From Pseudomonadota bacterium (GTDB lineage Bacteria > Pseudomonadota > Alphaproteobacteria > Rickettsiales > SXRF01): a DNA stretch of 64,000 nucleotides. This document shows, piece after piece, positions 12,422 through 43,783 of the stretch. The stretch lies in the NCBI GenBank assembly GCA_963205195.1, contig CAUJHR010000011.1, positions 84,164 to 148,163 of the forward strand. Reading direction: 5' to 3'. The notes beneath the pieces are model-generated. The model was not told where the DNA came from. It was given only the letters and a program-made list of their open reading frames with translations, and ran no database searches. The translations under genes and the position numbers were made by a program. How positions within the stretch are numbered: the first letter of the stretch is position 1; each line of letters opens with the position of its first letter.

Positions 12422-12422
12422 C

Positions 12423-13286: not shown

Positions 13287-13295
13287 AGGTATAAA

Positions 13296-13694
13296 ATGGC
13301 AAAACATAATAAATTGCGTTATCAGGTAAAAGATAAGCCAAGGGTTACTATAAAACTGACTGGCATAATATTCTTGCAGTATGTGGATGATGAGGCCGCG
13401 GAAACTGCAAAAAAAGGTGATTTGCTGGTTTATCCATATAATGAAGCACTTAATACTACACGTCAGGGAGAATATCATAGCACTGGCTTTACAGGATATT
13501 TTAAAGCTGATGTTTCTGACGGGAAAATATGGCAGCCCCTATTGTTAGGGCAGATTTTTAAAAATAATGAACAGTATTTTTCTAAAACTGAGCGGCCTAT
13601 TGATACTTATCACTTATGTGCTGAAATCTTACGAGATAATGCTGGAATTACTTTAATACGAACTTACCGCGAGCATTATGAGCCTGAAAACTAA
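13296..13694 (+). CDS. Hypothetical protein (132 aa)
   Basis: ORF with a start 10 nt after ispE, followed by a strong hairpin. No motif recognised. Confidence 0.45.
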   Translation: MAKHNKLRYQVKDKPRVTIKLTGIIFLQYVDDEAAETAKKGDLLVYPYNEALNTTRQGEYHSTGFTGYFKADVSDGKIWQPLLLGQIFKNNEQYFSKTERPIDTYHLCAEILRDNAGITLIRTYREHYEPEN

Positions 13695-13723
13695 TCACCC
13701 CCGCATATTATGCGAGGGTGATT
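13693..13723. terminator. Bidirectional hairpin terminator between convergent genes
   Basis: AATCACCCCCGCA - tatta - TGCGAGGGTGATT forms a 13-bp stem with one mismatch. It is flanked by T-rich tracts on the + strand and A-rich on the other side. Confidence 0.55.
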
Positions 13724-13735
13724 TTATTATGTGAA

Positions 13736-14530
13736 TTACGGACGTACTGGGTTTTTATCTCCTGCTCGCCAATTCTTAACCGCTTTTTGCATTAACTCAT
13801 AAGGCATTGCGCCAGGATAAAAATTCTCACCTATAATTATGGCTGGGGTTCCCATAGCGCCAATTTGCGCGCCTAATTCTCTATTTTTATCAAGTTCCAC
13901 CTGTATAGAAGGGTCATTCATTTCTTTTTTCAATTTTTCAGGGTCTATACCCAATTTTTTTGCTTCTGCTGCAATAACACTTTCATTGATTGTGTTGCTA
14001 CCAGCAGCGAACATAGCTTTATGAAAATCAAAATATTTGTCTTTTGCAATATGGTTGACCGCAAGGGCTGCTTTTGATGCCAGCTTGGAATCTTCGCTTA
14101 ATATAGGATACTCTTTTAATATAAGGCGTACCTTTTTATCGCTTTCAAGAAGCTTGGATAATGTACCCAAGGCCTGCTTGCAATATCCGCAATGGTAATC
14201 AAAAAATTCTACTATGGTAACATCCGCATCAGCGGCTCCTACAACAGGTGAAGATGGGTCAGAAAATAAATCACTTTTACGTTTTACAATTTCCTGCTTA
14301 GCTTTTGCTGTCATTTCTTCTTCTTGAGCTACCTGCATTTTTTCAACCACCTGACTTAATATGGTTGGATCTTTAAGCAATGCTTCTTTTATAAGCCCAG
14401 GTAATTCAGACTTAGTAACATAATCATTATTATTGGAAGGTGTTGAAGAGGGAGGCTGTGCAGCAAATGCTGAAGACGATAAAATACAAAAGCTAATTAA
14501 ATATGTAATAAAAGAATTAAATCGAAACAT
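13736..14530 (-). CDS. DsbA-family thioredoxin-fold oxidoreductase (secreted)
   Basis: Signal peptide ..ISFCILSSSAFA, a CGYC active site (FFDYHCGYCKQ) and a GTPAIIIG-type cis-Pro region. Confidence 0.8.
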   Translation of the reverse strand: MFRFNSFITYLISFCILSSSAFAAQPPSSTPSNNNDYVTKSELPGLIKEALLKDPTILSQVVEKMQVAQEEEMTAKAKQEIVKRKSDLFSDPSSPVVGAADADVTIVEFFDYHCGYCKQALGTLSKLLESDKKVRLILKEYPILSEDSKLASKAALAVNHIAKDKYFDFHKAMFAAGSNTINESVIAAEAKKLGIDPEKLKKEMNDPSIQVELDKNRELGAQIGAMGTPAIIIGENFYPGAMPYELMQKAVKNWRAGDKNPVRP

Positions 14531-14605
14531 ATAGAAAAACTCCGCTATTTGATGAGAAACAATTATAATACTAACAATAATTAAATAGAAGTATAGCTAA
14601 TAAAT

Positions 14606-15985
14606 TTAAAAAGGGCTGCTTTCATCATCCTCTTTCTTTCTCATTTGTTCAGCCTTGTTTTTAATGTCCTGCGATCTTCTATATGCTGGTGAGTCAGGTT
14701 TAAGGCTAGCTATTGCCTGGTTTGCCATTCTAAGGGCTGTTTTTGTCTCGCCTTGCAATAAGGCTTCTTCGGCTAATGCCTGGTAGGACATGGGTAAATT
14801 ATTGCTATGCCCATAAGCTGTTGCTAATAAGCGCCATGCTTCGGCATTGCTATTGTCAATATTTATAGATTTCTCTAAATGTGCAATGGCTGGCTTTGTG
14901 CTGGATCCAATATCCTGGGCAATTTCGACTTTCCCTAAATCTGCAAGTATCAAAGCTGAATCTGGTAGAAGTTTCACAGCCTTTTGATAAGCAGAAAGTG
15001 CTTCCCCTGTTTTTCCGTTTTCAAAAAGTATCTGGCCTTTTAATTCATAAAAAAATGGGTCGGACGGCGATTCTTCAATAAGGCTGGTTATTTCCATCAT
15101 TGATCTCTCAATATCCGGCATTTTATAATAAGCAACTGCTCGTGCAAGCCGGGCTGGGATAGTTTTATCACTTATAGGATATTTTTGCAGCGTCCGTTCT
15201 GGTGTCTGTAAGAATCCATATAGTTTTGCTACCATGCGCTGATGCAACATATCATATGATTTAGGATATTGGTTTATTTGGATTTTTGATTTTTCGATAT
15301 GGTTGCGGACAAATTCTATGCGGTCATTTGTTAGTGGATGCGTAATCATATAAGGGTCTGGAGATCCAAATTTTTTACGCTCATTCCTTTTTAGCAATTC
15401 AAACATTTTTAACATGCCATTGGACGAAATTCCTAATTTATCCAAGCTGTTTAAAGCGGATTGATCGGCTGATTGCTCATTGGCTCTGGTATATGATAAA
15501 AAATTGCGTGCTACTGTATTTTGCCCTCCAGTTATTACAGCGGCAGCTGCTTCTGGCTTTTTAGATGCAACTGCTGTTGCTGCCCCAAGTACAAAAGTAA
15601 GTATTGTTCCAATTTCAGCATTTTTAAGCTGTTCCGCACCTCTTGCTAAATGTCCACCTGAAATATGGCCAGTTTCATGGGCCATTACTCCAATTAATAC
15701 ATCGGGTGACTCTGAAGCCATGATAAGGCCAGTGTTTATGAACATGTTTGCACCACCAGCTACGTAGGCATTCAGGCTGCTGTCCTGAACTATAAAAATT
15801 TTAGTAGCAGTAGGGTTTACGCCAGCTGCTTTAAATATTGGGTCGGCATAGACCCTGAGAGTGTGTTCTATTTCCGCATCGCGTATTAATGGAACAGCCA
15901 AGGCTTGATTCGTGATAAGGCATAGCCCAGCCATCATACAGATAAATTTAATTATCAGATGGCTAGAAATGCCCATATTATTCAT
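14606..15985 (-). CDS. M48-family zinc metalloprotease with C-terminal TPR repeats (BepA/YfgC-like)
   Basis: HEXXH motif in VMAHETGHISGGH, a signal/TM segment, and C-terminal TPR units (GKTGEALSAYQKAVKLLPD..). Confidence 0.85.
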   Translation of the reverse strand: MNNMGISSHLIIKFICMMAGLCLITNQALAVPLIRDAEIEHTLRVYADPIFKAAGVNPTATKIFIVQDSSLNAYVAGGANMFINTGLIMASESPDVLIGVMAHETGHISGGHLARGAEQLKNAEIGTILTFVLGAATAVASKKPEAAAAVITGGQNTVARNFLSYTRANEQSADQSALNSLDKLGISSNGMLKMFELLKRNERKKFGSPDPYMITHPLTNDRIEFVRNHIEKSKIQINQYPKSYDMLHQRMVAKLYGFLQTPERTLQKYPISDKTIPARLARAVAYYKMPDIERSMMEITSLIEESPSDPFFYELKGQILFENGKTGEALSAYQKAVKLLPDSALILADLGKVEIAQDIGSSTKPAIAHLEKSINIDNSNAEAWRLLATAYGHSNNLPMSYQALAEEALLQGETKTALRMANQAIASLKPDSPAYRRSQDIKNKAEQMRKKEDDESSPF

Positions 15986-18557
15986 CCAGGCTTATCATTT
16001 TTTGCCACCATCCCCTTTTAGGAGGTGTTCCCGCTGGCGCAGCTGATTCATTTGAGCTTTCCGTTTTATAATCATGAAATGCCTTATAAGTGGGGGGGGC
16101 TGGGACAGCCGCAGGACGTGAATCAGAAGCAAAAGCTGGAAGGGCTTTACCATCAGCAAGTTCTGCTGCCCCACCATTCCAACTGGTAGGGACATCATTT
16201 GGCTGAGTTTGTTTTAATTCCTCCTGGCGATCATTGCGGTCACGCCATTTACGGCGCCCACGTCCGCCACGCTCGCGTGGCGGCCTTTTTGAAGAATTTT
16301 CCTGCCCATCTGCCGCAATTGTTTCAGCATTATTTTCTTCATCTGTTTGATTGGCATTTTCAGGATTTTCAAAATTGCCTTCTTGCCGTTCAGGACGGGG
16401 GCGTTGCCCTCCACGGCGTCCCCTGCGCCTGCTGCGGCGAGCATTTTCGTTACTTGAGGATTCATTATTTCTGGCACTTTCTGAGCCTTCGATTGTTTCC
16501 GGGCTATTAGTTTCTTCGGAAGTTTCATTAATAACAGTTTCTGTATTATTATTACGTGGCCTGTCATTACGTTCCTGCCGTTTCTGGCGACGATAATCAT
16601 TATTATCATTACGTTCATTGTGAGATTTACGAATTTTCTCTACATTGAATTCAGAAGACGCAAGCTCAGGATTTATAAGAATCTGAATGGAAATTTCATA
16701 GCGTTTTTCCAGTTCCTGCAATGCCTCACGCTTAAAATTAAGCATATGAAGTGCAAGTGATTGAGCAGCCATAACTCGCAACCCGTTAATATTACCATTG
16801 CTAGCTTCTTTCTCTATGGCACGGATTACCTGGATACCCATGGAGTCATGAGAGCGTATTACACCACGCCCTATACAATGAGGGCATTGCATCATATTTG
16901 TTTCTGAAATACTAGAGCGAAGGCGCTGTCGCGACATTTCCAGCAATCCAAATGGACTAATTCGACCTAACTGAATTTTAGCCCGGTCAGTTTTCATCGC
17001 GTCTTTTAAGGTCTTTTCTACAGAACGTCGATTCCTGGAATCAAGCATGTCAATAAAATCAATAACGACAAGCCCAGCGAGATCGCGCAATCGTAATTGC
17101 CGTGCAACCTCGTTAGCGGCTTCCAGATTTGTTTTTAGGGCTGTTTCTTCAATATTACGTTCGCCAGTTGCGCGACCAGAATTCACATCAATAGAAATAA
17201 GGGCTTCAGTTGGATTTATTACCAGATAAGCACCTGATTTCATCTTAACTACGGGATCATGCATTGATAGCAACTGATCTTCAATGTTGTAAGCATAAAA
17301 AAGAGGTGTTTGTGCTGAGTATTTCTTTATTTTTGGCAAGTGGCTTGGCAGTAATAGTTTCATGAATTCGCGGGCAGATTTATATGCCTCATCGCCTTCT
17401 ATCATTATTTCTTCAATATCATTGCTATATTGATCGCGGATAGCACGCTTTACTATATCGCTTTCTTCATAAATAAGGGCAGGGGCATTTGATCTTAAGG
17501 TGTCTTCACGGATTGCATTCCAAAGCTTTACAAGGTAATCGAAGTCACGCTTAATTTCAGCATGGGTTCTATCCATTCCGGCAGTACGTATAATAACACT
17601 CATGCCTTCGGCTAGGCGAAACTCGGTAGATATAGCTTTAAGGCGCTTACGATCCTCTGCACTTGCTATTTTGCGTGAAATACCTCCATCTTTTGGAGAA
17701 TTAGGCATAAGCACACAATAGCGCCCGGCCAGCGAAAGATAAGTAGTAAGGGATGCTCCTTTATTGCCACGCTCTTCTTTTATAACCTGCATTAATACAA
17801 TCTGTCCGCGGCGAATAACTTCCTGAATTTTATAACGACGCATGAACACATTGCGCTTGCGCTTATCACGCAGCTCATCTTCATCTGTTGCTAGCGTCTC
17901 AACTTCTTCCTTACCTGAGTCAGCTGATTGTTGGTTTTCATCTGCTGAGAAATTATTGTTATCACTATATTCTTCAGTGCTTTGCTGCTGTAATTCAGTT
18001 TCATTATCCTGTAATGCAGAAGATGGCTCATTTTCTTGGATATCAGATGGTATAATTTCTTCACCCAGAGAAATATCAATAGGGCCTTGCATTAAGTATG
18101 CAGGCCGAACTTGCTCTTCGATTTGATCTTGAGTCGCAGGCTCATCAGCCAATGAAGTTTCTGATATAAAATTATTGTTTGCCTCAGATATTTCTATTTG
18201 TTCCTGAGCATCATTTGAATTGGTTTCGCCTTCAGGGGTAATATTATTTTCCTGATTAGTATCTTCTGTTTCTCGTTCGGCTTCTTCCAGCAAGCGCTTG
18301 CGGTCCGAAACAGGGATCTGGTAATAATCAGTATGGATTTCAGAAAATGGTAAGAAACCTTGCTTTCCACCACCATATTCTACAAATGCAGCCTGCAAAG
18401 ATGGTTCGACTCTTGTTATTTTAGCAAGGTATATATTACCTTTAAGTTGTTTTTTAGCGGTGCTTACAAAATCAAAATCATAGATCTGGTTTTCATCGGC
18501 TATTACTACGCGTGTTTCTTCTGGATGCAGCGCATCAATAAGCATGCGTTTGGTCAT
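15978..18557 (-). CDS. rne: Ribonuclease E
   Basis: MTKRMLIDALHPEETRVV.. S1 domain with GNIYLAKITRVEPSLQAAFVEYG. There is an acidic insertion, a catalytic core (DVNSGR, LVVIDFIDM), a Zn-link CPHCIGRG, and an Arg-rich low-complexity C-terminus. Confidence 0.95.
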   Translation of the reverse strand: MTKRMLIDALHPEETRVVIADENQIYDFDFVSTAKKQLKGNIYLAKITRVEPSLQAAFVEYGGGKQGFLPFSEIHTDYYQIPVSDRKRLLEEAERETEDTNQENNITPEGETNSNDAQEQIEISEANNNFISETSLADEPATQDQIEEQVRPAYLMQGPIDISLGEEIIPSDIQENEPSSALQDNETELQQQSTEEYSDNNNFSADENQQSADSGKEEVETLATDEDELRDKRKRNVFMRRYKIQEVIRRGQIVLMQVIKEERGNKGASLTTYLSLAGRYCVLMPNSPKDGGISRKIASAEDRKRLKAISTEFRLAEGMSVIIRTAGMDRTHAEIKRDFDYLVKLWNAIREDTLRSNAPALIYEESDIVKRAIRDQYSNDIEEIMIEGDEAYKSAREFMKLLLPSHLPKIKKYSAQTPLFYAYNIEDQLLSMHDPVVKMKSGAYLVINPTEALISIDVNSGRATGERNIEETALKTNLEAANEVARQLRLRDLAGLVVIDFIDMLDSRNRRSVEKTLKDAMKTDRAKIQLGRISPFGLLEMSRQRLRSSISETNMMQCPHCIGRGVIRSHDSMGIQVIRAIEKEASNGNINGLRVMAAQSLALHMLNFKREALQELEKRYEISIQILINPELASSEFNVEKIRKSHNERNDNNDYRRQKRQERNDRPRNNNTETVINETSEETNSPETIEGSESARNNESSSNENARRSRRRGRRGGQRPRPERQEGNFENPENANQTDEENNAETIAADGQENSSKRPPRERGGRGRRKWRDRNDRQEELKQTQPNDVPTSWNGGAAELADGKALPAFASDSRPAAVPAPPTYKAFHDYKTESSNESAAPAGTPPKRGWWQKMISLDE

Positions 18558-22782: not shown

Positions 22783-25266
22783 TTAATAGTTTAATATGCT
22801 TACATTAGTTGAGGTATCCCAAGGGACTAATGTGCGGCCAAATAATATATGTATACTACCAGCATCACTGGAGGCATGTTCAGAAGATATAATTAAATCA
22901 TTTTTCCCATCATTGTTAATGTCGGCAATGGTTTCCACATTCACATTCTGACTTGCTGCATCGCCATCAATTCGGAATCCCTTGCTTGTATCGCTATTTA
23001 AGGGCAGGCCAGTACCAGTTGAATCAAATACCTGACCAAATAATGTAAGTGTGCCGCTTGACCATGCTGTACTCCAGCCACCGCTAGGCTGCAATACTAC
23101 AAAGCTTGCACCAGAATTTGACAAGCTGTTGGGCCCTCCGTTTGAATCAATGGATATAATGTCTTTTTTCCCATCGCCATTTACATCGGCTATAAGCGCA
23201 CTTGTCATAGGTGAAGTGACCCAAGCTGGAATATTGCTAACTAAATCCACTCTGAAGCCATTGGTGCCATTGTAATTTGCTGCTGTTGAAAGGTCAGGAG
23301 AGGTCCAACTGGCTGCTGTCTTTCCATAATAAATATAAAAATAATTACCATTATTAAATATAATATCATTATAACCATCGTTATTCATATCTGCTACCCT
23401 AATAGTGTATCTGCCAAGGTTGCTGGTACCATTAGTGAACTTAACAGCATCTGTTACACCAGCGCTAACACGAGTATCAATATTTACTATATCTGGAGTG
23501 GCCCCAGTTGCTGCAGTGGTTTTATCGGTATCCCAGTTTGCGGCAGACTCTCCAAAAAGAACATATGCAATATTATTGGTGTAATTGCTGACTATAATAT
23601 CTTCATACGTATCGCCATTAACATCACCAGACCCTACTGCTGATATTGCTTCCAGCCTTCCGGGAGAAGTAGTGTTGATTTTAAAACCAGTAGAGGCTGC
23701 TAATAACCAGTTTGTAGTATCGGCTGTTTTTGAGCCATAAGATGCTGCACCATATATAACATAAGCAGTTGAACTTCCTGTGCCAGAGGCAGTTTTTATA
23801 AGGGCAAGTATATCTTTGTTTGTTGTATGTGCAAATTTTCCAAGTGTTATTTGTGGCGCACCACTGGCAGTAGTTGATGGAAATGTTATGATGTCAGTGA
23901 GAGAGCTGGTATTGGTATCTACCGGTGAGGCACTTCCATAAAATATTTTTATATAGCTTCCGCTTCCATCCCCATAACCTATAATGATGTCATCATATCC
24001 ATCGCCATTAATATCGCCGGACGCCAAGCTGCCGGCAAAATTAGGAAGCGAAGAATTGTCAGTTATAGTAAAGAATCTTGAACTGTTGGCAGTTGCCATA
24101 GATATAGCAGAATTTGGAGTCCAGCCTGTAGGCTTACCATATATCACTCTAATTTTAGTACCGCCAGATTTTGAGGCTATTATATCTGATATACCATCTC
24201 CATTTATATCACCATTTGTAATAGACCAGCCCAGATTTTCTGCTGCAGAACCATCAATTCTTGTTCCTATATTGCACATTTTTCCTGTGCAGCATGTGTT
24301 CTTGGTTGATTCCTGCGTCCATACAGTATCATCAAAATAGTTATTTCCAGAAACCAGGTTTGGCTCATGTCTTATTAAATATGGAGTATACGATGTGGTA
24401 AAGTCAGTAGTATTTACGTCAATAAAGGCATTGGTGCGCTCATCTTTATTGGTTGCAGCGCTATCAATCCTATTTGCAAGGCTAGAACCCTGCATTGGAA
24501 AAGCGCCATGACCATTTTTCCCATATGATATTAAAGCCCACATTGCATTATCGCTATTGTATGAACCTATATTGGCCCATGAATCCATGATTTGAATTGC
24601 ACCCGAAGTTTTAGTGGTTTGCATATTGCGACAAGTTGTTTTATCGGTTGCCCTTATATCAACCATGTAACCTATGCGCCGCCCGTAACCATCCAGCATG
24701 TAATCATCAGAAAGACCAATTGTTTTTGTGGGAACTACTCCTGCTGCAACAGTAGTAAAAGTTAATGTTCCGCTGGCACCAGTTGCATATTTATCCATTG
24801 TAATTTGAGTGGCGCTATCAACACTAATTATATGAGTATTCGCCGCAATATTAGTTCCTGTAACAAGCATACCTATAGAAAGTCCGGTTGTGTCGCTTAA
24901 GGTAGTAGCTACCGCAGATGATGATGTAGTTGTAGCACCAGTTTTAGTTACAGGGGTTGATTGAGTATAAAAATTAGCTCCAGAACAGCTTCCTGAATTA
25001 GTATCTTCTTTGCCAAAATTTACATTGGTGCTTGCTAAAGTGCCATCTGCAGGACATGGGCGCCTTAAATTGGCTGCCATAAAGCTCTGGGTGGCTATTT
25101 CTATTTTTTCCATTTTTTCACGCGTAATGCGGTTTTTTTCAATATCACTGTTTGACTCACCGCCGGGGATGACTGAGGAAAGTATTATACCGGCAACTGC
25201 TATCAGTATACTTACCTGAACGAGCGAAAAACCTTGTTTTTGCATATTTATCTTAGATTTCGCCAT
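22783..25266 (-). CDS. Prepilin-type N-terminal domain protein fused to a seven-repeat FG-GAP (integrin-alpha-like) beta-propeller region
   Basis: The N-terminus MAKSKINMQKQG/FSLVQVSILIAVAGIIL has a type IV prepilin cleavage/methylation-like motif. Residues 1 to about 330 are paralogous to the 281-aa pilin-like ORF at 56557-57402. The C-terminal ~490 aa carry seven D-x-N-x-D-G-x-x-D-(I/L)-(I/L) repeats (GDINGDGISDIIAS, GDINGDGYDDIIIG, GDVNGDTYEDIIVS, ADMNNDGYNDIIFN, ADVNGDGKKDIISI, ADINNDGKNDLIIS, plus one degenerate copy). Confidence 0.8.
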   Translation of the reverse strand: MAKSKINMQKQGFSLVQVSILIAVAGIILSSVIPGGESNSDIEKNRITREKMEKIEIATQSFMAANLRRPCPADGTLASTNVNFGKEDTNSGSCSGANFYTQSTPVTKTGATTTSSSAVATTLSDTTGLSIGMLVTGTNIAANTHIISVDSATQITMDKYATGASGTLTFTTVAAGVVPTKTIGLSDDYMLDGYGRRIGYMVDIRATDKTTCRNMQTTKTSGAIQIMDSWANIGSYNSDNAMWALISYGKNGHGAFPMQGSSLANRIDSAATNKDERTNAFIDVNTTDFTTSYTPYLIRHEPNLVSGNNYFDDTVWTQESTKNTCCTGKMCNIGTRIDGSAAENLGWSITNGDINGDGISDIIASKSGGTKIRVIYGKPTGWTPNSAISMATANSSRFFTITDNSSLPNFAGSLASGDINGDGYDDIIIGYGDGSGSYIKIFYGSASPVDTNTSSLTDIITFPSTTASGAPQITLGKFAHTTNKDILALIKTASGTGSSTAYVIYGAASYGSKTADTTNWLLAASTGFKINTTSPGRLEAISAVGSGDVNGDTYEDIIVSNYTNNIAYVLFGESAANWDTDKTTAATGATPDIVNIDTRVSAGVTDAVKFTNGTSNLGRYTIRVADMNNDGYNDIIFNNGNYFYIYYGKTAASWTSPDLSTAANYNGTNGFRVDLVSNIPAWVTSPMTSALIADVNGDGKKDIISIDSNGGPNSLSNSGASFVVLQPSGGWSTAWSSGTLTLFGQVFDSTGTGLPLNSDTSKGFRIDGDAASQNVNVETIADINNDGKNDLIISSEHASSDAGSIHILFGRTLVPWDTSTNVSILNY

Positions 25267-25355: not shown

Positions 25356-26472
25356 ATGAAAGCAGAAATTGAAACATTATCCAGCCAAATCAAGCAGTCA
25401 CAAGATCTGTTAAGGAGGTATCTTTGACTGGGATAATGCTTTGCGCCGCCGTGATGAGCTGAATTCTCTCTGCGAGGACCCGAATCTATGGAATAATCCT
25501 GAGAAAGCGCAAGGGTTGTTGCGCGAGAGAAATCATATTGATTCCTTGATTAACGGATATGAAAGCCTTGATTTAGAGTTTAAAGGGAACATAGAACTTG
25601 CAGAAATGGCGGAAGCTGAAAAGGACAATGCTGTCTTGGCGGAAGCGGAGAATGCACTTGTAAAGATTGCTAAGGAATTACACAAACTAGAAATTGAGAG
25701 CCTGCTTTCTGGCGAAGCTGACGCTAATGATTGTTTTCTTGAAATAAATTCTGGGGCAGGTGGTACTGAATCACAAGACTGGGCAGAAATGCTTCTACGC
25801 ATGTATACAAGATGGGCTGGAAAACGTGGTTATAAATGGGAACTGGTTGAGGAGAGCAGGGGAGAAGAAGCTGGTATAAAATCTGCAACCATAAAAATTA
25901 TGGGCCATAATGCCTATGGCTGGGCAAAAACTGAATCTGGGGTTCACCGTTTAGTGCGTATATCCCCTTTTGATTCCAATGCGCGCAGGCATACAAGTTT
26001 TGCCGGGGTTTGGGTCTATCCGGTAATAGATGATAAAATAAATATTCAGATCAATGATAAGGATATACGAGTTGATACTTACCGGGCATCAGGCTCTGGC
26101 GGGCAGCATGTTAATAAAACAGATAGCGCAGTACGTTTTACGCATATTCCAACAGGTATAGTTGCTGCCTGCCAAAGTTCGCGCAGCCAGCATGCTAATC
26201 GCGCTGAAGCTATGAATATGCTAAAGGCCAGGCTTTATGAGCGTGAACTTCGCATACGTGAAGAAAAAGCCGACGCACTTAATTCTACCAAAACTGATAA
26301 CGCATGGGGACATCAGATACGTTCATATGTATTGCACCCATACCAGATGGTAAAGGATTTACGCACAGATTATGAAACAAGCAGTACAGGAGCTGTATTG
26401 GATGGAGAAATTGACGCCTTCATGAGCGCTGCCTTAGCAGATAGAGTTAAGGGAAAGGCGGAAAGTTTATGA
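25356..26472 (+). CDS. prfB: Peptide chain release factor 2; two-frame CDS joined by a programmed +1 frameshift (25356..25424 joined to 25426..26472)
   Basis: Frame 0 encodes [23 protein letters not shown] and then hits TGA. Reading resumes in the +1 frame as [13 protein letters not shown].. The body has the SPF tripeptide (RISPFDS) and GGQ ([11 protein letters not shown]). The ORF track shows only the downstream frame, from 25441. Confidence 0.95.
25413..25428 (+). promoter_or_regulatory. prfB +1 frameshift site (internal SD + CTT TGA C)
   Basis: AGGAGG TAT CTT TGA C: an SD-like AGGAGG lies 3 nt upstream of the slippery CUU followed by UGA-C. This is essentially the canonical RF2 autoregulatory site. 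Confidence 0.9.
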
Positions 26473-27569
26473 TAAATTCATTAGGATTTAATAAGCCTGA
26501 AAAAGACACCAAAGTAGTGGTAGCCATGTCAGGTGGGGTTGACTCATCAGCTGTTGCCGCACTTTTGCACGAGCAGGGCTATCAGGTTATTGGTATCACG
26601 CTGCAGCTTTATGATCACGGAGCAATGGTAAATAAGAAAGGCGCATGCTGCGCCGGTCAGGATATACACGATGCCCGGCGTGTAAGTGAGCAATTGGGAA
26701 TTGCCCATTATATTCTAAATTATGAAAATAAATTCAAAGAAAGTGTAATGGATGATTTTGTCGATAGTTACCTTGCAGGTGAAACCCCTATACCTTGTGT
26801 GAAATGCAACCAGTCAGTTAAATTCAAGGATCTATTGCAGACAGCACGTGATTTAGGTGCTGATTGTATGGCTACAGGGCATTATGTTCAGCGTGTAGAA
26901 AATAATGGAAAAGGGCAGATGCTTCGTGCTGCTGACCCGTCACGGGATCAAAGCTATTTTCTATTTGCAACTTCACAGGAGCAGTTGGATTTTCTTCGGT
27001 TCCCACTTGGGCATTTAAAAAGCAAGGATGAAACTCGCGCACTTGCTGCTCGTTTTGGTTTACAGGTTGCAGATAAACCAGACAGCCAGGATATATGCTT
27101 TGTGCCTACAGGAGGATATGCAAAAGTTATTGAAAAATTGCGTCCAGGTGCGTTGGATAAGGGTGATATTGTTTTAACTAACGGAACAGTTATAGGAACT
27201 CATGAAGGCATTATAAATTATACAGTAGGGCAGCGTAAAGGCCTTGGGATTGCTAACAATGAACCTTTGTATGTCGTTCGCCTTGATGCAGAGAAAAAGC
27301 AGGTGATTGTTGGTGCCAAAGAAGATTTGCTGAAAAAAGAATTTATTATTCGTGAATGTAATTGGTTATCAGTAGATAGTATGGAAAAAGGCGATGTGCT
27401 GGTAAAACTGCGTTCCATGCAACAGGTAGTGCCAGCTTCTATAGTTAAACAGGAAAACGGTTATGCAAAAGTCATATTAAAAGAGCCGCAATATGCTGTT
27501 TCTCCTGGGCAAGCTTGTGTAGCTTATCATGGAGATAGACTAATTGGTGGCGGCTGGATTTCAGGCTAA
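26469..27569 (+). CDS. mnmA: tRNA 2-thiouridine(34) synthase
   Basis: PP-loop [11 protein letters not shown], catalytic Cys contexts (CVKCN..; QDICFV) and ATGHY. Confidence 0.95.
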
Positions 27570-28246
27570 ATCTCAAATTCCATGAATAGTGTTTTTTTGT
27601 CTTTGCCTATCCATACTTTATCTGACAAGGCTTGAATCATCATCAAACCACGGCCATTTGGAAGTTTATCATCTTCTTTATATAAAGATAAGCTAAAGCC
27701 ACTGCCCTCATCACTTATGGCAATTTTGATGGAATTATTTTTATACCATGCCCTGAGACTTATACTGGAAAACCTGTAATGGTCCAATATCAGGCGCTTC
27801 TTAATTTCTTCCTGGTAAGCGTATAAACCTTTCATTGTACGGAAGTCGCTTTGCATTTCTAAATTACCATGAAACATTGAATTCATTACAGATTCCTGAA
27901 GGCATGTAGATATCTCCATGATTTTTTTGCCATTTAAAGCAAAGCGATTATCAATTGAATTAGAAAAAATATGAGCCAAATTGCTAGTGTAACATCCTAT
28001 TGTTGAAAGGCATAGAATCAGATCTGGTAACTCATCCCATAAGTATTCAAAAGATTTTTTGTGTTTATTGTAATGATTGATTTCAATAAATGCAGAGTGT
28101 GGTAAACTAATAATTGATTCTAACGTTTCGCTTGTTTTGCGATAATTTGGAATAGAAAAAAAATACGGTTTATAAAGTAAGTTTTTTTTACTTGAGGTTA
28201 GATCCTTGCTGTAATTGGATTTGTATTTAGCAAGAGTATTCCTCAT
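27566..28246 (-). CDS. RsbW/RsbT/SpoIIAB-like serine kinase (HATPase_c_2) with a ~90-aa N-terminal extension
   Basis: N-box-like [12 protein letters not shown]1-like ISDEGSGF and G2-like [13 protein letters not shown]. It starts 9 nt downstream of the STAS gene. Confidence 0.65.
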
Positions 28247-28255
28247 AAGCCGCTA

Positions 28256-28558
28256 TCAATTTATTGAAAATAATTGATGGAACTTAGATATATGGAATAT
28301 CTTTTCTACTTGTCCCTGAGGTGATTGTATATTCAGTTCTGTATTCCTTGCCATACATTCATCACGTAGAAGCAAAAGCATACCCATGCATGATGAATCT
28401 ATAAATGTCACATCGGAAAAATCCAATGTCATTGCTTTGATCCTGTTTTCATAAAGCAAATCAAGTATATTCTTGAATTTGTGTGTATCTGAAAATGTAA
28501 ATTGTCCGGTAAGTTTTATTGATGTAATAGAATTTGAAGAAGCTACGCTGTATTCCAT
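28256..28558 (-). CDS. STAS-domain protein (anti-sigma-factor antagonist-like)
   Basis: 100 aa. LTGQFTFSD....F..IL.......I..MTLDFSDVTFIDSSCMGMLLLL has the typical STAS topology, with the conserved Ser in the DSS position. Confidence 0.8.
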   Translation of the reverse strand: MEYSVASSNSITSIKLTGQFTFSDTHKFKNILDLLYENRIKAMTLDFSDVTFIDSSCMGMLLLLRDECMARNTELNIQSPQGQVEKIFHISKFHQLFSIN

Positions 28559-28568
28559 ATTTTTATCC

Positions 28569-29729
28569 TTAAAATAATTCTACTTCTTCTGCTTTAACTG
28601 AAGCAGGAGTATCTGTTGTATTTGTCGTACTAAGGGGTGTTCCTTCCAGGCTTAATTGGAATAATTTAGCGAATTCACTTAACTGGAATTGCTTTTCTAC
28701 ATTTTCTGCCAGAAATTTATCTGGCTTTATCTCTGATAATTCTGGAAAATAAGTGATATTATCTCTTTTTAATGTAGCAATATTTCCATCCATATAATCA
28801 AGCAGGCGCAAGCTGCTCTCTATGTATTGGGTTGTGCGGTCTTGAAATTGTAGATTTACAACCATTCCAGAAAGAGTATCCGAAGCCTCATGGCTAATGG
28901 ATGCAGAATTTTTTAATATAGCAGAAAATTTATTTTTCTGTTCTATCATCCCACCCATCAATGTAGCAAGCCTGCCTTGGGCTATTATGGTTTGCGACAT
29001 ATCGGTTGCCGAAACTTCTTTTAATATTTCATAACCATCACTAACGCCATCGCTTACAGTATTTATACGTACATTAATAGATTCTGCTATTTCACGTATT
29101 GTATTTGATACTTCTTTAACTTCATTTGCAACTACACTAAATCCGCGTCCTGCCTCACCAGCCCTTGCTGCTTCAATACTTGCATTCAGCGCTAGAAGGT
29201 TAGCCTTTTTTGTTATATTCTGTATGTCAGTTATAAAATTTGCTATGGTAGATATGCTTTTCATAGCCTCATCAAGCGCATAAACCATACTTATTGCACG
29301 CTTAGAAACAAACAATATCTTTTCTATAGAATCATTAAGCGTACCAGAGAACATCTCCATGAACTCTTCTAGAGTAACCTGCTCATTGCCAATAGTAATG
29401 GTATTTGATAACTCAGAGATTTGCTCGACTGATTTGCTTTGCTGCCTAATATCATTTGCAAGGCTTATGAAGCGGCTTGACATTGCTTTTGTTGAGTCTT
29501 CAACTAGCTTTGCTGTTTGGGGTAGCTGATGCTTTAATACACATAATGCATGATGATAAACCCCCATAGTGGAATGCCACCGCATAAGTTGTTCATGCGC
29601 TATTTGTTCAGTTTTTATTTGTGTGTTATTTGTCTGATTTAACATAAGAATGTTTTCTCTTATGAAGTCGAAAAAGTCAATAATAAATCTATTGTAGGTT
29701 GTATAAATTATTGTCCTAAAATAAGACAA
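28569..29729 (-). CDS. Soluble methyl-accepting-chemotaxis-protein signalling-domain protein
   Basis: Highly conserved MCP hairpin tip [37 protein letters not shown]. No TM segment is evident. The likely start is the internal Met near 29645 (MLNQTNN..). Confidence 0.85.
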
Positions 29730-29749: not shown

Positions 29750-30508
29750 TTAAGGAATGGATTCTAAAACTTCACGCATATAAACAGGCTGCGGAAGTCT
29801 TGAATTTCTGCCAATAATCCTTGTTATAAAGGATAGCTGCTCCCTTGAAATTGTAATAGGAGCTTTCAATATTTTCCAATGCACATTCTCAGTGCATGGA
29901 GGATAAGGTAGGGAGCCATCATAGGAATAGTACGCTTGATTATTAGAAATAAGGCTATTTGTGTTTATTTTGAATTTATCAAGTTTCTTTTCGGCTATAG
30001 GTTTTATAATTTGTGATATAGTGGAATTTTCAGAGCCGATATTTATAAATTGAGCAACTATAAGTATATCCCCTTTTTTATTTTTATGAATAAGGTGGAC
30101 CTCTGCTGGATAAAAGCCATCTTTTATTCGATGGCTACTTGGTGAATGAATCTCTATGGAATATAAGTTATATGATTCCTCACCTACAATTAATTCACCG
30201 CCATTTACAGCATAAAAAATAAAAGATCTGTTTTTAACTAATTTAAAAACCCCTTCTGCTTCATTATACTTAAAATTGAGAGAAGGAAGTTCGGATGGCT
30301 TTGTATAGGTAATATTTATTGGTGATTGCTTGGTTCCGTTACCACATACAGAATAACCTTTTACTGCTCCCCAATCTTCTTGTCCTGTATAATCATCATC
30401 ATAACTCCAGATCCCTTCAGGCACTGTTATATTTCTTTGTGCAAAAGAATTGCTTGGAATCATTAAGAAAAATGACAGTATTATCGAATAAATTGATATA
30501 TAACGCAT
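29750..30508 (-). CDS. Alpha-class carbonic anhydrase, secreted
   Basis: Signal peptide MRYISIYSIILSFFLMIPSNSFA. Alpha-CA motifs: GTKQSPINI, His ligands in EIHSPSSH / EVHLIHKN, and YYSYDGSLPYPPCTENVHW. The track ORF runs to 30739 (TTG), but that extension overlaps the portal gene. The Met near 30508 is the plausible start (coordinate approximate). Confidence 0.85.
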   Translation of the reverse strand: MRYISIYSIILSFFLMIPSNSFAQRNITVPEGIWSYDDDYTGQEDWGAVKGYSVCGNGTKQSPINITYTKPSELPSLNFKYNEAEGVFKLVKNRSFIFYAVNGGELIVGEESYNLYSIEIHSPSSHRIKDGFYPAEVHLIHKNKKGDILIVAQFINIGSENSTISQIIKPIAEKKLDKFKINTNSLISNNQAYYSYDGSLPYPPCTENVHWKILKAPITISREQLSFITRIIGRNSRLPQPVYMREVLESIP

Positions 30509-31970: not shown

Positions 31971-32561
31971 ATGAGTTTACGAAATAATATACTATCATAT
32001 GGAAGTGTTGCTAAATTTTTTCATTGGGCAGTAGCATTTTTAATTATTGGGATGATTGCTGTTGGGCTAATAATGGCTAATATGGAAAATAGCCCCGATA
32101 GATTTAAACTAATTGCCCTTCATAAGGAATTTGGAGTAGTTGTACTTATCCTTGCCTGTATGCGCTTAGGATGGAAAATACTAGATGTAAGTCCATTATT
32201 TCCAGAAAGCATGGATAAAATTTCAAGGCTTGGAGCTAAATTGGTACATTCCATGCTTTATATTCTTATGTTTGCTATGCCTATTACCGGTTGGCTAATG
32301 TCATCGGCTGCTGGTTTCCAGGTATCATTCTTTGGTTTGTTTTTATTACCAAATATTGCTTCTGCTGATAAAGAATTTGGTCATAGTATGGCTGAGCTAC
32401 ACGAGATTCTTGCATGGATATTGATCGCATTAATTACCCTGCATGTTCTTGCTGCGTTATTGCATCATTTTTATTATAAGGATAATATATTGCTGCGTAT
32501 GCTTCCTAATTTTAAAGGTAAATCCAATGCAGAAAATACTGGCACTGATACTGGCATTTAG
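31971..32561 (+). CDS. Cytochrome b561 (CybB family)
   Basis: Four TM helices with conserved His ligands (AKFFHWAVAFL.., LHKEFG, ELHEILAWILIALITLHVLAALLHHF). Confidence 0.85.
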   Translation: MSLRNNILSYGSVAKFFHWAVAFLIIGMIAVGLIMANMENSPDRFKLIALHKEFGVVVLILACMRLGWKILDVSPLFPESMDKISRLGAKLVHSMLYILMFAMPITGWLMSSAAGFQVSFFGLFLLPNIASADKEFGHSMAELHEILAWILIALITLHVLAALLHHFYYKDNILLRMLPNFKGKSNAENTGTDTGI

Positions 32562-33096
32562 TGTAGCTCTTGCTTTTCCAGCATTTGCTGATGCCCCGGC
32601 TTATAAGATTATTAAGGAAAAAAGTTATCTTAAATTTTATGCCATTAATAATGGCTCGCCTGTTGAGGGGCAATTTAAAGATTTTTCTGCAAGCATTAAT
32701 TTTGATCCTGAAAAACTTGCAGATAGTAAAATCAATATTGAAGTGCAAACAGTAAGTGTTGCTACGGATTATGATGAAGTTGCTAAGAACTTAATTTCTA
32801 AGGATTGGCTTGCAACATCGGATTTTCCTAAGGCCGTATTTACAAGCAAGGCAATTACTAGAATGCCAAGTTCAGAAAATTACTATGCTGATGGAACGCT
32901 TAAATTGCGGGATAAAAATGTACCGGTGGTCATTAATTTTCAATTGCAGTTTCCTGGCAGCAAAACTGCCATTGCCAATGGTTATGTAACGTTACGCCGC
33001 AGTGACTTTGGAATCGGTCAAGGCCAATGGTCTAAGGATGATGTGGTGAAGAATGAAGTGCGGGTTGAATTTCGGGTAGTAGCTGAAAAGATTTAA
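32527..33096 (+). CDS. YceI-family periplasmic polyisoprenoid-binding protein
   Basis: Signal peptide MQKILALILAFSVALAFPAFA. YceI pattern: ..S.L.F.......V.G.F..F...I.FDP.....S.I.I.....S..T, then L+LRDK..PV.. The start is refined to the internal ATG at 32527 and overlaps the cybB end, the usual cybB-yceI pairing. Confidence 0.85.
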   Translation: MQKILALILAFSVALAFPAFADAPAYKIIKEKSYLKFYAINNGSPVEGQFKDFSASINFDPEKLADSKINIEVQTVSVATDYDEVAKNLISKDWLATSDFPKAVFTSKAITRMPSSENYYADGTLKLRDKNVPVVINFQLQFPGSKTAIANGYVTLRRSDFGIGQGQWSKDDVVKNEVRVEFRVVAEKI

Positions 33097-38205: not shown

Positions 38206-38601
38206 ATGTTTAATTATTATAATTTACAAAAAGCAATTTATGACAAGCTTAGAAGTGATGCTGTTTTAATGACGCAAATCACTGGTGTGTATGACAATGT
38301 GCCTCAAGAAACTTCTTACCCTTTTATTTCATTTGGTAAAAATTACTCGAAAAAATTTGATATTTTAGGAAAAAATGGGTTTGAGCAAAAATTAGATATT
38401 GAAATATGGAGCCGGGAAGGTGGAAAAAAACAATCCGCATCTATTATAGAATCGGTATATTCTTTGCTACATAATGTAAATATCTCAATTGTTGGAATTA
38501 CAGTAATCAGCATAGAAGTAATATCATATTCTATAAGTTTGCAAAATGATGGATATACATATCATGGAGTTATAAATTTAAGGGCTATATTATCTAATTA
38601 G
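38206..38601 (+). CDS. DUF3168-type tail-completion protein (RcGTA g8-like)
   Basis: L.KAIYDKLRSD..L...ITGVYDNVPQETSYPFISFG......D.....G.E..LDIEIWSREGG.. Confidence 0.75.
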   Translation: MFNYYNLQKAIYDKLRSDAVLMTQITGVYDNVPQETSYPFISFGKNYSKKFDILGKNGFEQKLDIEIWSREGGKKQSASIIESVYSLLHNVNISIVGITVISIEVISYSISLQNDGYTYHGVINLRAILSN

Positions 38602-39343
38602 AGTTGGCAGGAATTGCAGCAGGTGCAGAAAGTGCATTAATATAAGTCCTGAATTGAGTTTCAGTATTTGTTAAATCGGATTTTTCACAGTCATTATTTG
38701 AATATAGCTCTTCATATGACCCTTTGGCTGCCGTTAAAGTATCATATTGCAAGCGTATTGGAGCCTGAAGAGCTGCTATTTCCCTTTGCATTGATGTAAT
38801 TATAAGGCTGTAATCATTATCGGTTGCTTTCCCACATTTTTGCATCAGGAAATATGTCACTAACAAATCTTCATAACGGGTCTTAATATCATCTATTGTG
38901 GTTACTTTATTATCAGGGGTTTTCCTAATATCGAATATATCTGATATATTATTCTTACCAGCTGAATCAGCCGTATTTATATTTGACTGATTATCTGGTA
39001 TTAAAGGAGGATAATAGTTTTTTTGAAGCTCAGAATTCTCTTCATCATTAACAGCAATATCCTCTGAATTAGAATCGGATTTGTTTTCAATGCTATCTAT
39101 ACGGTTTCCTAGCTCCCTAACTCTATAATCATAAAGGGCAATTAAAATAAAAGAAAAACCCATTATAGAAACAAGTTGGATGCTCCGTGACCAATGGAAG
39201 CGTATAATTTGCTTAATTGACTCAGAATCATATTTCTTATGAAGGCTGTTTTTAATCTGATTGTTTTCAATTATATGCAGGGCTAAGATTATAACAAATG
39301 CAACGGTAAGAAAAAACCAAAGTATAAATGGATATTCTTCCAT
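38594..39343 (-). CDS. Hypothetical membrane protein (two N-terminal TM helices)
   Basis: TM segments FILWFFLTVAFVIILALHII and LVSIMGFSFILIALY, an acidic/Asn-rich linker and a C-terminal globular part with two Cys. It starts 5 nt downstream of the lectin-like gene on the same strand. Confidence 0.5.
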   Translation of the reverse strand: MEEYPFILWFFLTVAFVIILALHIIENNQIKNSLHKKYDSESIKQIIRFHWSRSIQLVSIMGFSFILIALYDYRVRELGNRIDSIENKSDSNSEDIAVNDEENSELQKNYYPPLIPDNQSNINTADSAGKNNISDIFDIRKTPDNKVTTIDDIKTRYEDLLVTYFLMQKCGKATDNDYSLIITSMQREIAALQAPIRLQYDTLTAAKGSYEELYSNNDCEKSDLTNTETQFRTYINALSAPAAIPANSN

Positions 39344-39348
39344 GGGAT

Positions 39349-39804
39349 TTATGGATTTCCTAGCTCTCGATCACAGTCAATTGATAGAAAGCCTTCTATT
39401 GCCTTAGCTTTTCTTAGTTTATCTACAGAAAAACAACGATATTCTATTTGTAGATTTTTATAGCCGCAGCCAGGAGCTGGGTCGCCTCCCAAAGCGTCAC
39501 TGCTAATAGGAATATCGCATTTTGGTTTTCCATTGCAATATATTGAAACTTTATAGAGCACATTATCTTCTTTTACTACACTTCTTGATTCTTCCGATTG
39601 TGAATTAGAATTGTACTTATCATTATATGGAGAATTGCAATTAAGCCCCCAGCTGGCACGCTCCACTGTAATATTGTAAGGAGAGCTTTCTTTTAAGATT
39701 GTAGTTGCTACAGGTTCAGACTTATTCATCATAAATATATGGATTATGCCATATATCATGACGATAATTATAGATACTATAAGTAAATGGGCTTTAAAGT
39801 GCAT
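39349..39804 (-). CDS. Membrane-anchored SUEL/rhamnose-binding-lectin-like domain protein
   Basis: N-terminal TM anchor (LLIVSIIIVMIYGIIHIFM). Then ITVERASWGLNC....(30)...VLYKVSIYCNGKPKCDIPISSDALGGDPAPGCGYKNLQIEYRC matches the Gal_Lectin/SUEL pattern (A.YGR..C ... C.GK.SC.V......FG.DPC.GT.KYL.V.Y.C). Confidence 0.55.
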   Translation of the reverse strand: MHFKAHLLIVSIIIVMIYGIIHIFMMNKSEPVATTILKESSPYNITVERASWGLNCNSPYNDKYNSNSQSEESRSVVKEDNVLYKVSIYCNGKPKCDIPISSDALGGDPAPGCGYKNLQIEYRCFSVDKLRKAKAIEGFLSIDCDRELGNP

Positions 39805-39880
39805 GTCGATATTATTTATTTAAATGGTTATTATTCCGTTAATTAAATTTAAAAAAATACTAAGTTTATAAGGATAACAA

Positions 39881-40138
39881 ATGAATACGGAAATTACAAA
39901 GTATAAAAATTCATCTGCTAATGATTTGCTTGAAAACAGGATTTTGCAGCTTGAAAAACAATTAGCAAAACTTACCATGATTAATGATCGTAAATTAAAT
40001 AATAGCGACGCCCAATACAACCATTCAGGAGTTTCAAATATTCCAAACTCGTATAATAACAATTTGTCATTGAGTGAGGGGCAGCTATCTGCACATATGG
40101 CATTAGCCATGTCGCGCTCGAGCCAACGTAATTCGTGA
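39881..40138 (+). CDS. Small hypothetical coiled-coil/Asn-rich protein (85 aa)
   Basis: ORF only, with a short heptad-like LENRILQLEKQLAKL. Confidence 0.3.
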   Translation: MNTEITKYKNSSANDLLENRILQLEKQLAKLTMINDRKLNNSDAQYNHSGVSNIPNSYNNNLSLSEGQLSAHMALAMSRSSQRNS

Positions 40139-40309
40139 TATTTATAACATATTGATAATTATTAATATTATTTTTTGCAAAATGTAACATTTAATCAAAA
40201 ACAGACTCATTCCCGTAACTAAAATGTAATAAAAAACATATGGTGATGTTATGTAGGGGTTTGTTATACTTAAGGGGTATAAAAACAAGGATTTTGTTGA
40301 AAAGATAGT

Positions 40310-42115: not shown

Positions 42116-42271
42116 ATCCTATACAAAACAGACAATTACTATTAATTACCGATTATTGTCTTAAAAAATTCTGTGTTGTCACAAAATATTAATAAAAAAA
42201 CAGTGGGATGCTGGCATAGCAAGGTTTATAATCTGCTTATGATATAACAATTATGTTATCGAGCTTGGTAA

Positions 42272-43771: not shown

Positions 43772-43783
43772 TGACGTAAACAT

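Follow-up and report, generated by a model that had tools for sequence, protein, structure and literature searches.

A Chemoreceptor, a STAS Protein, and a Serine Kinase Retained Together in a Putative Remnant of a Chemosensory Gene Cluster in an Alphaproteobacterium

Results

A Compact Locus Encodes a Soluble Chemoreceptor, a STAS Protein, and a Serine Kinase

We analyzed a stretch of 64,000 nt of an alphaproteobacterial genome of the Rickettsiales (positions 84,164 to 148,163 of contig CAUJHR010000011.1, assembly GCA_963205195.1; hereafter "the window," whose own coordinates are used throughout), focusing on three consecutive minus-strand genes for a soluble protein with the signaling domain of methyl-accepting chemotaxis proteins (MCPs), a small STAS protein, and a serine kinase, together referred to as the triad. 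The three open reading frames (ORFs) occupy 28569–29729 (386 aa when read from a TTG), 28256–28558 (100 aa), and 27566–28246 (226 aa), and the gaps between them measure only 10 nt (MCP/STAS, 28559–28568) and 9 nt (STAS/kinase, 28247–28255), which confirms the compact arrangement described in an earlier, sequence-only reading of the same DNA. Gene callers and all homologues place the receptor start at an internal ATG at 29645, giving a protein of 358 aa, a choice made independently by gene callers on 16 contigs, from metagenomes and assemblies, with an identical STAS protein. The ribosome-binding site of the STAS gene (AAGGA) overlaps the MCP stop codon, and the kinase stop codon overlaps that of the convergent mnmA gene by 4 nt. 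When the region from 27.3 to 30.9 kb was scanned for promoters and terminators, nothing rose above shuffled expectation, including two weak −35/−10 candidates 5′ of the MCP ATG.

The receptor (28569–29645, minus strand) is a helical hairpin without a sensor domain. Its sole Pfam match is MCPsignal (PF00015; E = 1.2e-22, 81 bits against a cut-off of 34.6), and it has no transmembrane segment, the maximum 19-residue Kyte–Doolittle mean being 0.98. An AlphaFold (AF2) model with a predicted local distance difference test (pLDDT) score of 79 shows a long, soluble, all-helical hairpin with its tip at about residues 163–166, a β-hairpin insertion in the N-arm (residues 82–91), helix breaks in the C-arm at 214–216 and 265–266, and a disordered tail (residues 340–358). 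The tip region (residues 140–185; 29091–29228, minus strand), which in canonical receptors binds CheA and CheW, contains the near-invariant motif quoted in the earlier reading. Together with the PF00015 match and the lack of transmembrane segments, this confirms the description of a soluble MCP-signaling protein with a recognizable hairpin tip. Among nine homologues from loci that hold the triad alone ("triad-only"), mean pairwise identity was 90% (minimum 83%) at the tip, compared to 61% over the whole receptor. No canonical methylation-site pairs of any class were evident when the receptor arms were inspected by eye.

After a variable linker, the receptor ends in EVELF (28572–28586, minus strand). 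In the same nine homologues the last six residues are 75% identical and the preceding linker 17%; the terminal LF is invariant, and [DE][VI]ELF usual, in 14 locus homologues, and the tail consensus of 60 database homologues is DIELF. Comparable tails are known from the McpA-like receptors of gammaproteobacterial F7 chemosensory clusters, which have no assignable heptad class and a strikingly conserved C-terminus to which no role has been assigned (Ortega 2020, PMC7184735). In these receptors, the consensus [DET][VIL][ED]LF replaces the xWxxF CheR tether and follows a C-terminal extension, examples being EVELF in PA0180 and VCA1088, EIELF in SO_2117, and DIELF, TVELF, or DLELF in others (Ortega 2020 Suppl. 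Table 12, PMC7184735). Judged by its residues, the window receptor carries the exact McpA-like signature tail, in the form found in PA0180 and VCA1088, and its irregular hairpin agrees with the report that a heptad class is hard to assign to McpA-like receptors. The MCP domain and the EVELF tail on a variable, disordered linker are thus present, and the predicted transmembrane region of McpA-like receptors is absent. All named organisms among the best 120 database matches of the receptor are alphaproteobacterial.

The second gene (28256–28558, minus strand) encodes a single-domain STAS protein of the RsbV/SpoIIAA (anti-sigma antagonist) type, matched by PF01740 (STAS, 3.2e-14) and PF13466 (STAS_2, 2.6e-12) and scoring 52.2 bits with the NCBIfam model for anti-sigma factor antagonists, TIGR00377 (cut-off 53.45). 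Its best matches in the Protein Data Bank (PDB) are SpoIIAA and TM1442. Ser55 (codon 28394–28396, minus strand), the predicted phosphorylation site, lies in the motif FIDSS and aligns with the first serine of FMDSS in SpoIIAA; D-S-[SA] is invariant in 15 STAS homologues. The Pfam matches and this alignment bear out the earlier description of a 100-aa STAS protein with the conserved serine.

The third gene (27566–28246, minus strand) encodes a 226-aa serine kinase of the RsbW/SpoIIAB type with a Bergerat fold, matched by HATPase_c_2 (PF13581; 1.7e-11, residues 90–222), so that each of the families that the earlier reading had proposed to search, namely PF00015, PF01740/PF13466, and PF13581, was found. 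A profile search against the PDB retrieved SpoIIAB at 1e-6, the NCBIfam models for SpoIIAB and RsbW matched weakly, and an AF2 model (pLDDT 87.5; predicted template-modeling score [pTM] 0.82) had LvrC (9qih), SpoIIAB, RsbW, and UsfX as its best Foldseek matches, with TM-scores of 0.67–0.76 on the target. In 50 family members, the N box (the ATP/Mg site; 27860–27907, minus strand) shows no variation at E118 and H126 and conservation of at least 90% at N122, G127, and N128; within the stretch that holds the G1 box (DEGSGF, 27695–27712) and the G2 box (GRGL, 27644–27655; together 27644–27712, minus strand), G181 is invariant and D179, G183, G198, R199, and G200 are at least 90% conserved.

Two features set this kinase apart from the compact single domain of 140–160 aa that is usual for its type: an insertion of about 35 aa that follows the N box and an N-terminal extension (residues 27–86; 27989–28168, minus strand) that is absent from SpoIIAB and RsbW. 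The extension, with the motifs PYFF and F-I-E, is conserved subfamily-wide (E55 is invariant) and forms, in a high-confidence part of the model, a small α/β unit that packs against the Bergerat domain. Together with other HATPase_c_2 proteins of 215–235 aa, the kinase makes up a distinct subfamily: an exhaustive HMMER search returned 857 relatives, of which about 100 at E < 1e-10 match over residues 25–225, and the subfamily consensus reads TCLQEAxxNAxxHGNL for the N box, DEGxGF for G1, and GRGL for G2, each invariant or at least 90% conserved. The HATPase_c_2 and fold matches thus uphold the earlier identification of an anti-sigma-type kinase with N/G1/G2 boxes and an N-terminal extension. 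No cognate sigma factor gene was found in the window, part of which was read by eye, or in any related locus, and a tblastn search of the PLSDB plasmids with a related kinase from Rhodopseudomonas gave no match. We also considered whether the kinase might be a degenerate CheA P4 domain left from a deleted cheA. This was rejected, since its Pfam match is HATPase_c_2 and anti-sigma kinases come first in both sequence and fold comparisons, where the catalytic domains of histidine kinases score far lower and CheA is absent.

Complete Chemosensory Clusters Occupy the Same Site in Related Genomes

Using phmmer with references from related loci, we found no match to CheA, CheW, CheY, CheR, CheB, CheD, REC-PP2C, or Hpt proteins among all window ORFs of at least 50 aa. 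Likewise, phmmer, partial Pfam scans, precomputed hits, and reading of the translations yielded no che, PP2C, or sigma factor gene in the 64 kb, in line with what the earlier reading had stated. The Pfam scans covered 36.3–58.8 kb and ten ORFs of the first 16 kb, and the remainder was assessed from precomputed neighborhood hits or from the translations by eye; the methylmalonyl-CoA-mutase-like and NusA-like ORFs near 58.8–63.1 kb were identified by eye alone.

Related loci were collected through exact-protein look-ups and pattern scans and annotated with phmmer references. The pattern scan used a single exact peptide from a 15-sequence kinase alignment and returned 9 genome and 11 metagenome loci, so that the survey is small. 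The triad nevertheless recurs in about 15 independent lineages, which is far beyond chance and answers the neighborhood survey that the earlier reading had called for; it is intact in 14 of the 15 informative lineages, the exception being a split kinase gene, so that its conservation beyond this genome is borne out.

The published gene order of stage 1 F7 clusters starts at an anti-sigma factor antagonist, after which come cheY, cheA, two cheW, an aer2-like gene, cheR, cheD, cheB, and an mcpA-like gene (Ortega 2020, PMC7184735); at its 3′ end, in gammaproteobacteria, the mcpA-like gene is followed by a second anti-sigma factor antagonist plus a serine phosphatase (Ortega 2020, Nat Commun, PMC7184735). 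Several related loci resemble this order. [quoted passage not shown] In Rhodopseudomonas (CP133111), the order is CheY, CheA, CheW, a PAS-containing MCP, CheR, CheD, CheB, an MCP of 373 aa, STAS, a kinase of 219 aa, REC/PP2C, Hpt, and a hybrid histidine kinase. The genes cheY, cheA, cheW, aer2-like, cheR, cheD, and cheB are all present, at the homologous site, in L017, L026/L040, and L027, and none of them is in the window. McpA-like receptors have been reported solely beside F7 clusters, after cheB and before a STAS gene; homologues of the window receptor hold this very position in L017, L026/L040, and L027, and in the window itself STAS follows but no che gene is found.

Shorter versions of the cluster were also recovered, its other genes having been lost step by step. 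Locus L024 consists of McpA-like, STAS, kinase, and REC/PP2C genes, with housekeeping genes and no che upstream. The triad alone is found in the window, L011/L020, L013, L022, L023, L025/L032, L030, and L036, as well as in L015, where the kinase gene is split. In a neighbor-joining tree of STAS and kinase, L036, which has no phosphatase gene, is the sister of L037, which has one (100% bootstrap), and since this pair stands apart from the group of the window, adjacency to REC/PP2C has been lost at least twice. A different arrangement occurs in L042, a Rickettsiales MAG, at 9304–18098: STAS_2, CheY, CheA, CheW, CheR, CheD, and CheB genes lie beside flagellar genes and are followed by an McpA-like gene and a STAS gene of the 3′ type. 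The McpA-like receptor of L042 has 873 aa, with a long low-complexity N-terminus and the tail DDDIELF.

The surroundings of these loci connect the complete clusters with the window. In the window, the triad has as neighbors mnmA, prfB, an 827-aa FG-GAP protein, PBP1A, AmiC, and RNase E. A convergent mnmA follows the cluster in L026, L027, and L028; beyond it lie prfB and PBP1A in L026 and L027, and an FG-GAP protein of about 800 aa in L026, which are the same neighbors as in the window. Directly upstream of the window receptor lies an alpha-CA-like gene with a signal peptide (29750–30508, minus strand; 252 aa; Pfam Carb_anhydrase 3.1e-29). Its homologues in the L026/L040 and L027 clusters (12556–13371 in L040; about 2629–3294 in L027) are 43% and 34% identical to it and sit between the genes for CheW and the Aer2-like receptor. 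The shared neighbors on the mnmA side and the CA homologues within the clusters together point to the window arrangement, CA-like/McpA-like/STAS/kinase followed by mnmA, as a deletion remnant. Judged by gene order, the locus is the remnant of a complete che cluster that was reduced in place, and the CA-like gene is a retained member of that ancestral cluster. The earlier reading had suggested a che-operon remnant rewired to a serine-kinase output: the remnant is supported by full clusters at the same site, but the rewiring is not, since STAS, kinase, and PP2C genes are ancestral to the cluster.

What remains of the cluster appears to be maintained. The receptors of the window and L011 are 70% identical, the STAS proteins 72%, and the kinases 46%, and none of the catalytic or phospho-site residues has been lost; near-identical copies occur on 16 contigs from different samples; and the interrupted kinase of L015 is the single clear decay event. 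This pattern of sequence conservation indicates that all three genes are under purifying selection.

No F7-Type CheA Was Found on Large Triad-Only Contigs

As a proxy for a genome inventory, we used the CheA of L026 as a query and considered the best 120 matches, all at least 59% identical. Among the matches listed, no F7-type CheA lay on the triad-only contigs (2,054,897, 925,434, 368,998, 255,115, and 287,256 bp), while the list did include contigs of more distant receptor homologues (21030, 79964, 156871, 365336, and 313304 bp, and others). The mnmA proteins of the window and L026 are 79% identical, compared to 81% between L026 and L027, for which CheA identity is 71%; by this calibration, a CheA orthologue of the window lineage is expected at about 65–71% and hence within the listed matches. 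The same CheA family also serves the L042 cluster beside flagellar genes. As evidence that those large triad-only contigs, at least, lack the Che core, these results are of moderate strength, and their scope falls short of whole genomes.

The Carbonic-Anhydrase-Like Gene and Other Features of the Window

Compared to solved bacterial alpha-CAs, the CA-like protein has IEIH for FHFH, SSH for SEH, and SLPYPP for SLTTPP, and the first zinc-binding histidine is replaced by glutamate in the window and by glutamine or arginine in relatives; the changes in the window protein are the equivalents of H94E, E106S, and T199P. Going by these substitutions, it is probably catalytically inactive, a periplasmic pseudo-enzyme or binding protein linked to a chemosensory cluster. 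In the triad-only locus L013, a truncated-haemoglobin-type globin gene (7970–8353), divergent and 5′ of the receptor, takes the place of the CA-like gene; both are gas-related, which may be coincidence.

The rest of the window contains housekeeping genes, a gene-transfer-agent (GTA)-like cluster, an RND pump, and MscS. The GTA-like head-tail cluster (30686–51218, plus strand) codes for a portal, an S78 protease, a capsid protein, a head-tail connector, and head and tail completion proteins, as well as a DUF2460 protein, a baseplate hub, and a GTA TIM-barrel protein. Cytochrome b561 and YceI genes (31971–33096) break up this cluster, as does a block at 38594–44770 that encodes a lectin-like protein and three large proteins without a Pfam match. 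These three consecutive ORFs (40310–42115, 42272–43771, and 43784–44770, plus strand; 601, 499, and 328 aa), with no Pfam match at E < 1e-3, could be effector-like or lineage-specific proteins. The GTA portal gene adjoins the triad in the window, L011, L015, and L036 and does not in L013 and L024. A regulatory link between triad and GTA, prompted by the RbaVW system discussed below, is conceivable but unsupported.

On the mnmA side, prfB (release factor RF2; 25357–26472, plus strand) has a canonical programmed +1 frameshift site at 25422–25428 (AGGAGG, then TAT CTT TGA C), which is why the ORF list shows just the downstream 343-aa frame. Prepilin-type N-terminal methylation motifs are present in two proteins (22783–25266 and 56557–57402, both minus strand), one of which is the 827-aa FG-GAP repeat protein, whose gene is syntenic with the triad locus across relatives.

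Discussion

A Proposed Partner Switch with a Chemoreceptor as Its Third Member

We consider it somewhat more probable than the opposite that the triad is the retained 3′ part of a stage-1-F7-type cluster in which a STAS/kinase partner switch operates with the McpA-like receptor as its third partner. Three blocks would have been deleted in place: STAS-CheY-CheA-CheW, the Aer2-like gene with CheR/CheD/CheB, and REC-PP2C. By extension from SpoIIAB/SpoIIAA, RsbW/RsbV, CrsR/CrsA, and HsbR/HsbA, the kinase would use ATP to phosphorylate Ser55 of the STAS protein and, again as in these four systems, unphosphorylated STAS would bind and occupy the kinase. The deletion series suggests that the sensor-less receptor could serve the switch as scaffold and input, or as its target. 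The receptor would be tied to the STAS/kinase pair, to judge from its constant gene company and its lack of a sensor domain, and it would probably be recruited through the EVELF tail on its flexible linker, much as the NWETF tether works in classical receptors; the tether-like tail is still conserved after the loss of CheR and CheB. The N-terminal extension of the kinase is a candidate docking site, and output would run through free STAS or free kinase to a target encoded elsewhere. A bolder proposal, which we hold to be rather doubtful, is that the McpA-like receptor with its EVELF tail, STAS, and kinase might form an autonomous unit that works independently of CheA, with the hairpin scaffolding or gating the partner switch.

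Several observations weigh against a switch with the receptor as third partner. The label "F7-like" for the complete clusters is given by gene order and receptor tails rather than by CheA class profiles. The association of the three genes is not universal: in L018, an McpA-like gene closes a che operon and neither STAS nor kinase is present, L028 has STAS, kinase, and REC/PP2C with no adjacent McpA-like gene, and L042 has McpA-like and STAS genes but no kinase. The most persistent unit may be the pair of McpA-like and STAS genes. A kinase without a nearby phosphatase would lock STAS in the phosphorylated form unless a PP2C is encoded elsewhere. An interaction of the receptor with STAS and kinase is a prediction from gene company and analogy. 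Finally, gammaproteobacterial McpA is part of the F6 chemotaxis array, together with CheA, and the near-invariant tip would fit continued binding to CheA and CheW if such genes are present elsewhere in the genome.

These last points lead to the alternative that the adjacency is historical, the receptor being an orphan that joins a CheA/CheW array encoded elsewhere, much like McpA in the F6 arrays of Pseudomonas, Vibrio, and Shewanella, while STAS and kinase form a separate switch with an unlinked phosphatase and target. In gammaproteobacteria, localization and signaling of McpA need F6 CheA/CheW and not the F7 core, the tip that would bind these proteins is the part of the receptor kept at 90% identity among triad-only lineages, and the components are found apart in L018, L028, and L042. 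Nevertheless, the three genes have stayed 9–15 nt apart and in the same order despite the repeated loss of all other cluster members, the STAS ribosome-binding site is embedded at the MCP stop codon, the receptor has no sensor domain of its own, and the listed matches place no CheA of the family that serves both types of che cluster on the large triad-only contigs. On balance, we regard this alternative as unlikely, though as one to be taken seriously. Much less probable is decay, with the triad as a functionless leftover of the deleted che cluster. In favor of this, the che core and the phosphatase gene are missing, the neighboring CA-like gene has lost catalytic residues, and the genome resembles that of a reduced, symbiont-type alphaproteobacterium (GC 39%). 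In L015 (9445–11162 of a 2.05-Mb contig of a "Rickettsiales bacterium" MAG), moreover, the kinase gene is interrupted near residue 77 by an insertion of about 1 kb, another point against a functional switch; its McpA-like and STAS genes are intact, and the split kinase is either a decaying copy or an assembly or insertion-sequence event. Decay is, however, difficult to reconcile with frames that remain open in the window and in no fewer than 13 further lineages, with catalytic boxes, phospho-serine, tip, and tail kept over divergence down to 40% kinase identity, and with near-identical copies on the 16 independent metagenome contigs.

The earlier reading had also raised the possibility that the MCP replaces RsbR as the sensor of a stressosome-like complex, with the kinase acting as RsbT. 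The superficial list of parts (a sensor, a STAS protein, and a GHKL serine kinase) is all that speaks for this. A stressosome combines a sensor with a C-terminal STAS domain and a second STAS protein as RsbS; at this locus there is a single STAS gene, of the RsbV/SpoIIAA type, and the receptor has an MCP domain only and thus no STAS domain for a stressosome core. In addition, the nearest solved relatives of the kinase are the anti-sigma factors SpoIIAB, RsbW, LvrC, and UsfX, and the ancestry of the locus is that of a che cluster, so that we consider this idea hardly credible and do not retain it.

The locus bears on questions posed by those who defined the ancestral F7 system, which is widespread in Vibrio, Pseudomonas, and Shewanella: its output, the role of the McpA-like receptor, and the role of the tail were all left by them as open questions. 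The reduced alphaproteobacterial genomes amount to a natural deletion series in which all cluster members were lost except the McpA-like receptor, STAS, and the serine kinase, and it is the STAS/kinase pair, and not CheA, CheR, or CheB, that this series suggests as the functional partner of the receptor. The triad would thereby offer a minimal three-protein system for testing a receptor–STAS/kinase partnership. Were the autonomous unit real, it would explain why McpA-like receptors co-evolve with F7 systems despite being dispensable for F7 arrays, as well as what the tail is for, and the triad-only lineages would be the first in which an MCP signaling domain is kept in genomes without CheA. 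If, on the other hand, the receptor merely feeds a CheA encoded elsewhere, the locus would be an ordinary rearranged remnant.

Comparison with Known Systems

Among characterized systems, the stage 1 F7 clusters are the closest in gene order, with examples of the F7 type in Shewanella oneidensis (che1, SO_2117-2126), Vibrio cholerae (cluster III), and Pseudomonas aeruginosa (Che2 with PA0180) (PMC7184735). The window retains the last three elements of the published order, but it is without the Che core, the Aer2-like receptor, and the phosphatase, its receptor is soluble whereas the published one is membrane-anchored, and its lineage is alphaproteobacterial whereas the published survey dealt with gamma- and betaproteobacteria. 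McpA-like receptors were found in that survey to co-evolve with F7 CheA, CheB, and CheR and yet to be dispensable for F7 arrays and to sit in F6 arrays (Ortega 2020, PMC7184735); here, such a receptor occurs without an adjacent F7 cluster. The related alphaproteobacterial clusters likewise depart from the published order in that kinase and REC-PP2C are separate genes and a CA-like gene is embedded.

The partner-switch half of the triad has well-studied counterparts. In Shewanella, the last two genes of che1, next to mcpA, encode CrsA and CrsR, the latter a REC-PP2C-anti-sigma kinase, which form a partner switch controlling RpoS. Like CrsR/CrsA and HsbR/HsbA of Pseudomonas, the window pairs a phosphorylatable STAS antagonist with a serine kinase of the anti-sigma type. 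CrsR and HsbR, however, are three-domain REC-PP2C-kinase proteins, whereas the kinase here is a protein of its own with a novel N-terminal extension, and the window has no PP2C; in the relatives, REC-PP2C is a separate downstream gene. To our knowledge, alphaproteobacteria are not expected to have RpoS, and the target must therefore be another than that of CrsR/CrsA and HsbR/HsbA. SpoIIAB/SpoIIAA and RsbW/RsbV of Bacillus share the fold, the N/G1/G2 boxes, and the position of the phospho-serine with the window proteins, but the window kinase is about 80 aa longer than SpoIIAB and RsbW, is linked to a chemoreceptor, and has no sigma factor gene nearby.

Closer in lineage is RbaV/RbaW/RbaY of Rhodobacter capsulatus, a system that yielded no sigma partner, whose apparent output is the STAS protein, and which affects GTA production and motility (Mercer & Lang 2014, PMC3999984). 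This, too, is an alphaproteobacterial partner switch of STAS, RsbW-like kinase, and REC-PP2C, and the window triad adjoins a GTA cluster; RbaW, which is likened to the window kinase by description, has 163 aa, lacks an N-terminal extension, and is not associated with an MCP. CheS of Sinorhizobium meliloti and Agrobacterium is another small STAS protein whose gene accompanies that of a soluble MCP in a che operon; this STAS-only protein binds the chemotaxis protein CheA instead of a sigma-factor system. Its position is that of the 5′ STAS_2-type gene before cheY/cheA, whereas the window STAS is of the 3′ type. The 5′ STAS_2 type is 24% identical to the window STAS and has no D-S-S phospho-site. 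For Campylobacterota, a STAS protein acting on a chemoreceptor has been proposed from gene neighborhoods.

The earlier reading had held the coupling of these genes to be uncharacterized. This does not apply to their association, since that of McpA-like, STAS, and serine kinase-phosphatase genes is already published and the partner-switch half is characterized as CrsR/CrsA and HsbR/HsbA; it does apply to the role of the McpA-like receptor. Compared to published accounts, what our sequence comparisons would add is the occurrence of McpA-like receptors and a stage-1-type cluster in Alphaproteobacteria; a soluble McpA-like form, together with a split of kinase and REC-PP2C, an extended kinase, and an embedded CA-like pseudo-enzyme; and a triad that occurs without an adjacent F7 cluster, contrary to the rule reported for McpA-like receptors. 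McpA-like receptors and stage-1-type clusters would thereby extend to the Alphaproteobacteria, in contradiction to an exclusive neighborhood with F7.

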